Shown one piece after another: positions 13,637-49,935 of a stretch of DNA of 64,000 nt. A program made the translations under genes and the position numbers. A model generated the notes under the pieces. That model was not told the origin of the DNA and searched no databases. It saw only the letters and a list, made by a program, of their open reading frames with translations. The stretch comes from Eledone cirrhosa (Eukaryota): positions 111,168 to 175,167 of the forward strand of contig CAXHJY010000998.1 of NCBI GenBank assembly GCA_964016885.1, written 5' to 3'. The stretch's first letter is position 1. The number at the start of each line of letters is the position of its first letter.

Positions 13637-13898
13637 GGCGCATGGCTTAGTGGTTAGAGCATTGGGCTTGCAATCGAAAGGTTGTGAGTTCAATTCTCAG
13701 GCCGGGTGGTGTGTTGTTTCCTTGAGCAAGACACTTTATTTCACGTTGCTCCAGTTTACTCAGCTGTAGAAATGAGTACTGGCCTGCCCGCCCAGCCAGT
13801 GGGATTGCGTTATCTTATGGCTAAAACAGCACGACGTGCTGTGACCAGCGGCTCCGATTGGCGCCCGACAGACTGGTCGGTCAAGGTTATCAAGGTGA
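13634..13898 (+). mobile_element. tRNA-derived SINE (family 2) with RTE-derived 3' tail
   Basis: A box TGGCTTAGTGG, B box GTTCAATTC, central CCTTGAGCAAGACACTT; tail 13830-13898 matches the RTE 3' end at 12471-12540; (TA)n on both sides. Confidence 0.9.
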
Positions 13899-26697: not shown

Positions 26698-26859
26698 TAA
26701 TGGTTGCATCTAATAGGGTACGTCAAAATTATTTATAAAACTGTTTATATATTGTATTTTGTCTGATGAAGGCATACCATATTTTAATTTGGTATCCCTG
26801 AAATATGTATAATGAATAAATATGGTTTTATAAATATAGTTTCCATTTATTTAATATCG

Positions 26860-48292: not shown

Positions 48293-48324
<32 letters not shown>

Positions 48325-48331
48325 TATAATC

Positions 48332-48522
48332 TATAATAAACAATACAATATAATTACCTCATTACCAGAGGTTTCCCGAATAAGACGAATACGAAAAACG
48401 TCCTCATTCGTTCGTCGGATAAGGCAATTCCTTATCCGACGAACGAATGAGGACGTTTTTCGTATTCGTCTTATTCGGGAAACCTCTGGTAATGAGGTAA
48501 TTATATTGTATTGTTTATTATA
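48332..48522. repeat. Perfect palindrome, 93-bp arms, 5-nt loop
   Basis: Arms checked base by base; loop CAATT at 48425-29. Confidence 0.95.
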
Positions 48523-48737
48523 CATTAAATTTAGCTCTGGCACTTACATAGAGCACTCTTCACTCCTATGACTTTTTCAATTTTCAACGGAAACTTCAAT
48601 ACTTGGTAGAATATAGGCATTTTTATTTTATATAAAAATAACTTGTACACATCTAGAAGTTTCATTCGCAGGAAACCAACAGGAAAGTTTATATATATAT
48701 ATATCGCTAGGACACCGATAATTACACACACACACAT

Positions 48738-48866
<129 letters not shown>

Positions 48867-49284
48867 GTATATTAGTGTGTATAGTGTGATGATATTTGTT
48901 ACTGAAGGTTGTGTTATTTGGGTGTGGTATATTATCATTGTACCTTTTGAAACCATGAGTAATCTTGATATCACAACATATTGTCTTTATCAGTTAACAC
49001 GTTTTCTTAACTTAAATTGTTTGCTTTATTTCATTATTTATTTTTTTGACACTGTTTAAATTGTTTCAGTTAAATACTTTTGGAACCAAAAGAAATGTAA
49101 GATAAAACCAAGGAAAACAAAACCTAAATATAAAGATTAAAAGAATCTAACTCAGTGTGGACTGTGGCAAATATATTTGTATAATGTTCTCATTTGTAAA
49201 TATATTTTAACTAGATCTATCGGATGAACTAAATAGCGTACATATATACATCCTTACATGCATATATATATATATATATATATA

Positions 49285-49664
49285 TGCAGTTCTGTTTACA
49301 TGCCAACACAAGAGCAATGATGAAGGGTTCATTCTACTGACATGGCTTTAAAAATGAGGCTCGTATACAGGAAACTGCCTGGCCAGTCTGCTGATATGCA
49401 AATCTGGCTGATCAGTGGATCTGCTAATATGCAGATCTGACTGATCAGCCGGTCTGCTAATATGCAAATCAGGCCCATCAGTCACTGTATATTTTAGAAA
49501 ATAGCATATAGTTTCACTAGCTCTGACAGTTGGCAGGTGAACAGTGAGCTGTACTGACGAAGGGTGATATCCAGAAGCATTAGTGTCTGCAGTTCTGTTT
49601 ACATGCCAATACAAGAGCAAGAATGAAGGGTTCATTCTACTGACATGGCTTTAAAAATGAGGCT
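49285..49664 (+). mobile_element. Retrozyme/Penelope-like non-autonomous element: 303-nt unit plus ~77-nt terminal redundancy
   Basis: Direct repeat 49285-49361 / 49588-49664, starting right after a (TA)n tract at the base following the HHR cleavage site; three internal 33-nt repeats at 49381-49480. Confidence 0.75.
49546..49595 (+). ncRNA. Type I hammerhead ribozyme (one core variant)
   Basis: Stem I GAGCTGTA/TGCAGTTC (extendable: TTGGCAGGTGAACAG pairs with CTGTTTACATGCCAA); CTGACGA 49554-60; stem II GGGT/ATCC; GAAG (for GAAA) 49574-77; near-palindromic stem III CATTAGTG; GTC triplet, predicted cleavage after 49587. Confidence 0.8.
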
Positions 49665-49935
49665 TGTTTGCATAATTGCAAACGAATCGAATGTTATTGT
49701 TAATATTCGAAAAACTCAGATAACATTTATATATATATATATATATATGTATGTATATATATATATATAGTAATAATAATAAATGTGAAGACTAAAATCC
49801 AAAGAAGGCTCGATAAGGATAAATATATATCAAATATATAAGAACCCTAGAGCAATAATTATTAAAATATTTATTAAAATAACGGATTAAAGTTTATGCA
49901 AGGAATCACTGCTTTCACCCTTAACGGGATTTATA

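Follow-up and report, generated by a model that had tools for sequence, protein, structure and literature searches.

A decayed hammerhead repeat in the Eledone cirrhosa genome, probably moved by Penelope-like enzymes

The stretch of DNA analysed here (the window) comprises 64,000 nt of the Eledone cirrhosa genome and holds, at 49285 to about 49730, a short element with a hammerhead ribozyme motif. This element is probably a decayed, deleted copy of a 437-nt non-coding hammerhead repeat that was likely moved in trans by the reverse transcriptase (RT) and GIY-YIG endonuclease of a Penelope-like element (PLE). It is an element of a known kind (non-autonomous PLE or non-LTR retrozyme), and the population signals among its copies are of moderate mechanistic interest. 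In this ORF-less, high-copy family a truncation cliff at the cut, a strict pairing of short and long arms and an allele identity within insertions become countable, and these counts bear on the in vivo cutting of PLE hammerheads and on the origin of partial tandems, inverted arms and the one-sided tail. The 437-nt unit could also serve, as a natural substrate, in the PLE assay already established in vitro. Literature searches outside supplements found no count of truncation at the cut, of short/long arm pairing or of allele sharing between arms or units. No description of the family was found either, in a search that lay mostly outside subscription journals and outside Repbase, Dfam and supplements, so the family is possibly already catalogued.

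The window copy and its hammerhead

Unit positions are numbered from the predicted hammerhead cut as 0. The window copy contains the following features.

49262-49284, no strand: left part of the (TA)n target tract (sequence; TA-rich 3' flanks across the family)
49285-49361, + strand: upstream partial unit, 0 to +76 from the predicted cut, with its 5' end at the site (repeat and family alignment)
49359-49362, + strand: private deletion junction with 3-nt microhomology GCT, about 134-137 nt of the 437-nt unit lost (single genome match)
49382-49482, + strand: three 33-nt repeats with a long rod as their predicted fold (repeat search, folding)
49529-49553, + strand: hammerhead stem I, 5' strand (core and stem inspection)
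49554-49587, + strand: hammerhead core with stem II and the palindromic stem III; 49587 is the last base before the predicted cut (core and stem inspection)
49588-49610, + strand: hammerhead stem I, 3' strand, the start of the second unit (core and stem inspection)
49588-49730, + strand: second partial unit, 0 to about +143, ending at the short 3' end of the family, the putative proximal RT start (family alignment)
49728-49769, no strand: right part of the (TA)n target tract (sequence)

The island begins with TGCAGTTC at 49285, directly after (TA)n, and its 5' end corresponds to GTC|TGCAG, as the sequence-only reading of this DNA had described; the first T of the island can be assigned to the TA tract instead. 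The three internal 33-nt repeats named in that reading were found at 49382-49482. Its end of the island at 49664 was too early, as 49665-49730 also belong to the element, which extends to about 49727-49730 and is followed by (TA)n.

The window copy contains an 85-nt direct repeat at a spacing of 303 nt and is about 94% identical to another copy of the family. The family unit measures 437 nt, and natural two-unit copies have a period of 436-442 nt. The deletion junction has one match genome-wide, namely in the window. Because the family unit is longer by about 134 nt and the junction is private, the window copy is read as unit positions 0 to +76, a deletion, and positions -229 to +143, and its apparent 303-nt period results from this private deletion in a 437-nt unit. 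The alignments of all other good matches begin only at query position 75, owing to the roughly 134 additional bases that intact copies have at that point. The 303-nt monomer proposed earlier is therefore private to the window copy, and a 303-nt subfamily was rejected on the same unique junction. No contig from four sequencing runs at the locus spans or confirms this junction. TGCA occurs on either side of the left TA tract (window 49254-49288), and the 8 nt before that tract equal unit positions +10 to +17, both possibly by chance; a similar TGCA doubling is present at the 5' junction of locus L111.

The hammerhead is open at stem I (type I layout). Its core consists of CTGACGA (49554-49560), stem II (49562-49572) and GAAG (49574-49577), followed by CATTAGTG and TC|T; cleavage is predicted between 49587 and 49588. 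Stem I comprises 22 pairs, in agreement with the earlier estimate. The window copy carries the variants U7C, a G-U pair in stem II and A15.1G (GAAG). Rfam hammerhead models gave no match to the window copy at the gathering score or at E<=10, and the hammerhead was therefore called by its core and stems. The window 303-mer folds at a z-score of -5.1, and the 437-nt monomer is strongly self-paired in its predicted fold.

Conservation was assessed in 117 complete hammerhead regions from loci picked on sequence 3' of the core. Each position of the core CUGANGA / GAAA / UH is conserved at 92-98%, and all 12 core positions are intact in 68 of these 117 decayed copies. GAAA, expected earlier as the consensus, is present in 102/117 copies and GAAG in 1/117. 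The 22 stem I pairs are kept at 78-98%, stem II at 85-93% and stem III at 95-99%, and the core is invariant among subfamilies. Pairing is kept at 4/5 polymorphic stem I sites by one-sided wobble shifts; two-sided compensation was found in none of the 117 regions, and the common allele -42 A (15/117) breaks a stem pair. The family hammerhead has an extra nucleotide between A9 and 10.1, a G10.1-C11.1 pair, an unpaired A between C11.1 and G12, and a palindromic stem III, for which the duplex of two halves is predicted at -8.8 kcal/mol versus +1.7 for the monomer hairpin. In an autonomous PLE family of the same genome, stem II is likewise flanked on each side by an unpaired base. The earlier assignment to a type I hammerhead of the dimer type, within a repeat that resembles retrozymes and PLEs, was right, and the motif is predicted to be self-cutting at GUC|.

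Other repeats are present in the window. Three hammerhead-like motifs of another family lie at 26763 (+), 34967 (-) and 56077 (+), with a layout as in loci L284 and L297. A near-perfect palindrome with arms of about 100 nt and a 5-nt loop (48321-48533) adjoins a TA tract and looks like a head-to-head insertion of another element. A weak Rfam tRNA match (31 bits) at 13643-13700 is likely the head of a tRNA-derived SINE.

The family and its 5' ends around the predicted cut

Exact 22-mers at position 0 and at +84 have 1,399 and 4,024 matches, respectively, in the 3.0-Gb genome (reversed controls, 0 each); these are 22-mer matches, not copy numbers. The GC content of the unit is 0.40. Copies with two hammerheads exist and form a minority. 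The 5' ends of the longest copies are scattered from -470 to -698, and these copies share no non-unit sequence; among 29 further long copies picked by score, most 5' ends fall between -470 and -641, preceded by unrelated DNA or an inverted arm. An exact two-period pattern gave five matches in the genome, two with about 2 units and three internally deleted. This genome-wide pattern revealed no long tandem array of the unit, and a master tandem array was rejected as the source on that basis.

No RT/GIY-YIG ORF is attached to the unit in long copies, in which the upstream sequence is the unit again, up to about 2 units. Similarity to PLE proteins within the unit was confined to that seen in other copies of the repeat. 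The two short ORFs of the unit match no Pfam family, and a coding role was rejected on these two results. An antisense frame of about 93 codons, which spans both the hammerhead and the 33-nt repeats, is open in 13/46 copies (for example L263:1493-1774 and 1935-2216); it matches no Pfam family, and common 1-nt indels would shift it. PLE protein matches occur in 21/263 loci, three of them in a repetitive N-terminal stretch of one query, and the two closest cases (L073, L107) are unrelated neighbours 3' of the element. That the copies are merely 5'-truncated terminal repeats (pLTRs) of an autonomous PLE would agree with the insertion hallmarks, every one of which is of PLE type, and is nevertheless very improbable, given that the unit is preceded by the unit and never by an ORF, and that PLE protein matches are so few and the closest unrelated.

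The genome does contain PLE families with RT and GIY-YIG domains, with 95-98% protein identity within families, and some carry their own hammerheads. A first look gave 10,596 GIY-YIG candidates, of which 150 were scored. Terminal homology to the repeat was absent among the matches listed for the first 1.2 kb downstream of the stop codon at 19 GIY-YIG loci, which represent about 6 families and were drawn from the 10,596 candidates. Several young PLE families with a CxxxxCxxC linker are found at loci L279-L298, and these are presumably Neptune-like. One PLE family (L282, L283, L286, L294) has its own hammerhead with palindromic stem III and two 3' ends about 40 nt apart.

A sister hammerhead repeat was identified at L323:1-3600 (G000:C3:308735900 onward), with 6 tandem units of about 441 nt and (TA)n. 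Its units are at least 98% identical and alternate in an A-B pattern, and a short 5' arm in inverted orientation is also present. The sister repeat shows homology to the present family through the hammerhead (score 89 versus 43+-6.6 for shuffles, maximum 68.5), and it is a better candidate than this family for an active circle-forming retrozyme. A related motif also occurs in L290.

The distribution of 5' ends was determined in two sets of copies. Set B consists of the first 100 matches of the +84 22-mer in genome order and is not fully independent, as some members are two arms of one insertion and two pairs resemble segmental duplicates; set A consists of 88 sites and partly overlaps set B. 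In set B the 5'-end rate per nt is 0.39-0.44% at +83 to +25, 1.06% at +24 to +11 and 1.63% at +10 to +1, and reaches 3.68% at 0 to -2 (6 ends versus 0.94 expected, P=4e-4), followed by 0.62% at -3 to -15 and 0.38% at -16 to -45. The 5' truncations thus form a ramp over about 25 nt and a cliff at the cut, a zone and not a one-base peak. The peak is weaker in set A, with 1.5% at 0 to -2 (4 of 88) versus 0.3-0.6% at -16 to -330.

Genome-wide, abrupt 5' ends were found in 21/1399 matches at 0, 23/1403 at +8 and 10/4024 at +84, counts for which the three upstream filters admit slightly different fractions of random flank. Exact ends at the cut are in excess over +84 (P=1e-6) and equal in frequency to those at +8 (Fisher P=0.88), and a single-base pile-up at the cut was rejected on the latter control. 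On inspection by eye, 4/21 ends at the cut and 2/23 at +8 proved to be indels, and the +8 ends include two duplicate pairs. The pile-up at GTC|TGCAG expected from the sequence-only reading is accordingly seen as an enrichment at and just 3' of the site, without preference for the exact base.

Run-off of RT from cut RNA, together with end trimming, predicts a ramp and cliff of the observed form. The excess near the site, the window copy included, could instead reflect stalling of RT or microhomology joining in stem I, with no cleaved RNA end involved. Such an origin would account for the equal rates at +8 and at the cut and for the 3/21 exact-end loci that join an inverted arm near stem I, two of them via clear TGCA microhomology. 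Stalling is also confounded with run-off, because the 3' strand of stem I covers the same 25 nt. It is nonetheless rather unlikely as the explanation: the 3' strand of the 33-nt-repeat rod shows no ramp in set A (0.54% versus 0.50-0.57% nearby), and the rate drops sharply just upstream of the cut. The 5' end of the window copy likely came from self-cleaved RNA, as first proposed. The over-representation of ends near the cut agrees with this origin but is weaker than claimed, as +8 equals the cut and most copies start elsewhere.

Among the set B copies that reach the site, 51/57 pass it intact, a read-through of about 90%. Excess ends account for about 17 of the approximately 78 copies that enter the zone, so most templates appear to have been uncut, circular or jumped. 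The suggestion that the GAAG variant left the internal site uncut fails on this read-through and on the single GAAG among 117 copies. A 303-nt monomer or circle, uncut owing to GAAG, is scarcely credible for the same reasons, despite the 303-nt period, GAAG and good fold of the window copy, since its junction is unique in the genome and GAAA prevails elsewhere.

The 5'-truncation rate about doubles after roughly one unit from the start site (-300 to -520; 1.1-2.6% versus about 0.5% per nt; sets A and B). Such a rise would be expected both from RT meeting its own cDNA on a circle and from source loci of limited length.

Insertion signature, allele sharing and a possible cycle

The family has two 3' end sites, at about +143 and at +160 to +181, about 36 nt apart. 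In set B, 50/100 3' ends fall at +130-150, 35/100 at +155-190, and 15/100 are shorter; a SINE follows 8/100. At least 10 nt of TA are present in 64/100 set B 3' flanks versus 10.8% in the flank background. The (TA)n targets mask any target-site duplication, which in non-LTR retrozymes exceeds 4 bp when present. A head-to-head inverted arm is present in 63/100 set B copies.

The SINE, labelled by its appearance as a tRNA-like element of about 190 nt, has its 3' end at the same unit base in about 19 of the first 120 loci. It sits at unit position +109 to +112 (L003, L006, L029, L070, L071, L078, L087, L090, L105, L108, L113, L115 and others), with flanking duplications mostly of 0-16 nt, and apparently prefers one site within the family unit.

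A total of 140 distinct head-to-head arm pairs were collected; 72 with a SINE-interrupted, shorter or internal end were excluded, and 68 had both ends classed as short or long. One short and one long end are combined in 64/68 pairs (permutation mean 34, maximum 50), and in 43/45 pairs at loci not chosen for length (sets A and B). The short-tailed arm reaches further 5' in 22/43 pairs, so neither arm is a sub-copy of the other. A tail on one arm only is already known qualitatively. According to the available part of PMC11167929, the tail corresponds to the distance from one RT start site to the other, and cutting and extension take place on both strands of the target.

Allele sharing was determined between direct units and between inverted arms. 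The two units of each insertion were compared in 60 insertions that exceed one unit in length. They have 136 variants in common versus 46+-8 under permutation, and no fixed differences between unit 1 and unit 2 were found. Common alleles are shared in 108/131 cases versus 28%, and rare alleles weakly, in 10/267 versus 3.5+-1.8 (1.3%). Inverted arms share common alleles in 110/138 cases versus 35% between insertions, and rare alleles in 27/273 versus 1.3%. As linear copying of a two-unit source as it stands would let the units drift apart, the duplication is likely remade in each cycle, and the likely routes are a circle or an end-to-end jump. The arms are most simply read as the result of priming twice on a single RNA source, once from each start site.

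Processes after insertion would also yield shared alleles, whether by gene conversion, by tandem duplication or by the folding back of a single cDNA that is then extended. Locus L263 is an exact dimer whose units share private changes, including an inactivating C3A change of the core, which suggests DNA-level duplication there, and self-priming has been proposed for head-to-head repeats in the accessible text of PMC3846280. As a general account these processes are improbable. Units within an insertion are only 93.8% identical versus 92.0% between insertions, which indicates that ongoing conversion is weak, and simple fold-back would leave one arm contained within the other, contrary to the 22/43 pairs noted above.

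These observations fit a scheme in which twin priming on a single RNA is combined with copying beyond one unit, the template possibly being a circle. In a cycle of this kind, a locus longer than one unit would be transcribed, and two hammerheads would associate via the palindromic stem III and slowly cleave at GUC|U, leaving uncut RNA, linear RNA that begins at the cut and, probably, 437-nt circles closed by ligation. A PLE protein would then nick both strands of a (TA)n tract; here the target bias is observed and the enzyme is putative. Each nicked strand would prime cDNA on the same RNA, at about +143 and about +165 to +180, the positions of the observed ends, and the two cDNAs would be joined head to head, or one cDNA would be joined straight to the target, as in the window. 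RT would run off the cut 5' end, as is likely for the window copy, or would round a circle or jump between ends, giving more-than-unit copies whose units are initially identical.

A more specific reading is possible, and is put forward tentatively: the copies may be a fossil record of the Penelope cycle in vivo. Only a minority of germline templates would be cut by the hammerhead, and the remainder would be copied past unit length as 437-nt circles. A PLE protein acting as a dimer would prime from the two cut target strands on a single RNA, at two fixed sites about 36 nt apart. If so, one step would explain why an arm is inverted, why the tail is one-sided and why the pseudo-LTRs are identical, and the unit would be a minimal cis-acting substrate for PLE-driven insertion.

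Copying may also proceed without a circle, if RT copies uncut linear transcripts of loci of 1.5-2 units, end-to-end template jumps regenerate identical units, and the hammerhead is largely a passenger. The high read-through (51/57) and the five two-period matches genome-wide, none a long array, agree with this. So do two literature findings, as far as the available portions of the sources extend: hammerhead-less Naiads also form partial tandems (PMC8557442), and uncut RNA is the main in vitro substrate of an anole PLE, with no reads ending at the cut (PMC11167929). The core and stems are, however, kept across subfamilies, and the truncation ramp ends at the cut, and this alternative is considered somewhat unlikely. 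A jump on a cut monomer gives the same junction as a circle, and the copies cannot separate the two. Twin priming with more-than-unit copying accommodates either route.

Comparison with known systems

Animal non-LTR retrozymes are described in PMC7229834 (Cervera & de la Pena 2020), and more-than-unit copying round a circle is proposed there and in PMC4209133, both as represented in their available text. Like these retrozymes, the family has a non-coding unit of 150-450 bp with a type I hammerhead and a GC content below 50% (here 437 nt and 40%), its predicted monomer is highly self-paired, it co-occurs with PLEs, and more-than-unit reverse transcription is proposed. It differs from them in consisting of dispersed partial tandems of up to about 2 units, without arrays, in the dominance of PLE-style two-site 3' ends and inverted arms, and in being known from DNA copies alone. 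The available part of Li et al. (bioRxiv 10.64898/2026.07.22.740005) argues that such hammerhead repeats are non-autonomous PLE derivatives and records in vitro cleavage of 1/9 dimers.

The EN+ PLEs (Penelope/Poseidon and Neptune) are closest in their insertions. In the portions of PMC8557442, PMC3846280 and PMC11167929 at hand, they share with the family 5' truncation, partial tandems, an inverted 5' arm, a tail of 30-40 nt at one end, (TA)n targets and a hammerhead just upstream of the RT starts; PMC8557442 and PMC3846280 describe for PLEs partial tandems, an inverted 5'-truncated copy, the 30-40-nt tail at one end and AT-rich targets. Unlike them, the family has no RT/GIY-YIG ORF, and no homologous autonomous partner was found in the sample of 19 loci.

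The minimal, dimeric hammerheads of PLE type (Cervera & de la Pena 2014, PMC4209133, in its accessible part) resemble that of the family in the extra base A9/10.1, the G10.1-C11.1 pair and the palindromic stem III/loop 3, whereas stem I of the family is far longer (22 pairs), stem II is short (4 bp), an extra A precedes G12 and no Rfam model matches. Chlamydomonas MRC1, a non-autonomous PLE, is likewise ORF-less and forms pLTR-like partial tandems, whereas PLEs of the MRC1 type are similar to their partners in the 3' end and come from a clade in which hammerheads are mostly lacking (PMC8557442, available text). Judged from its sequence features, the family appears to work like a non-autonomous PLE and has most of the characters of non-LTR retrozymes, apart from arrays and with circular RNA a predicted feature.
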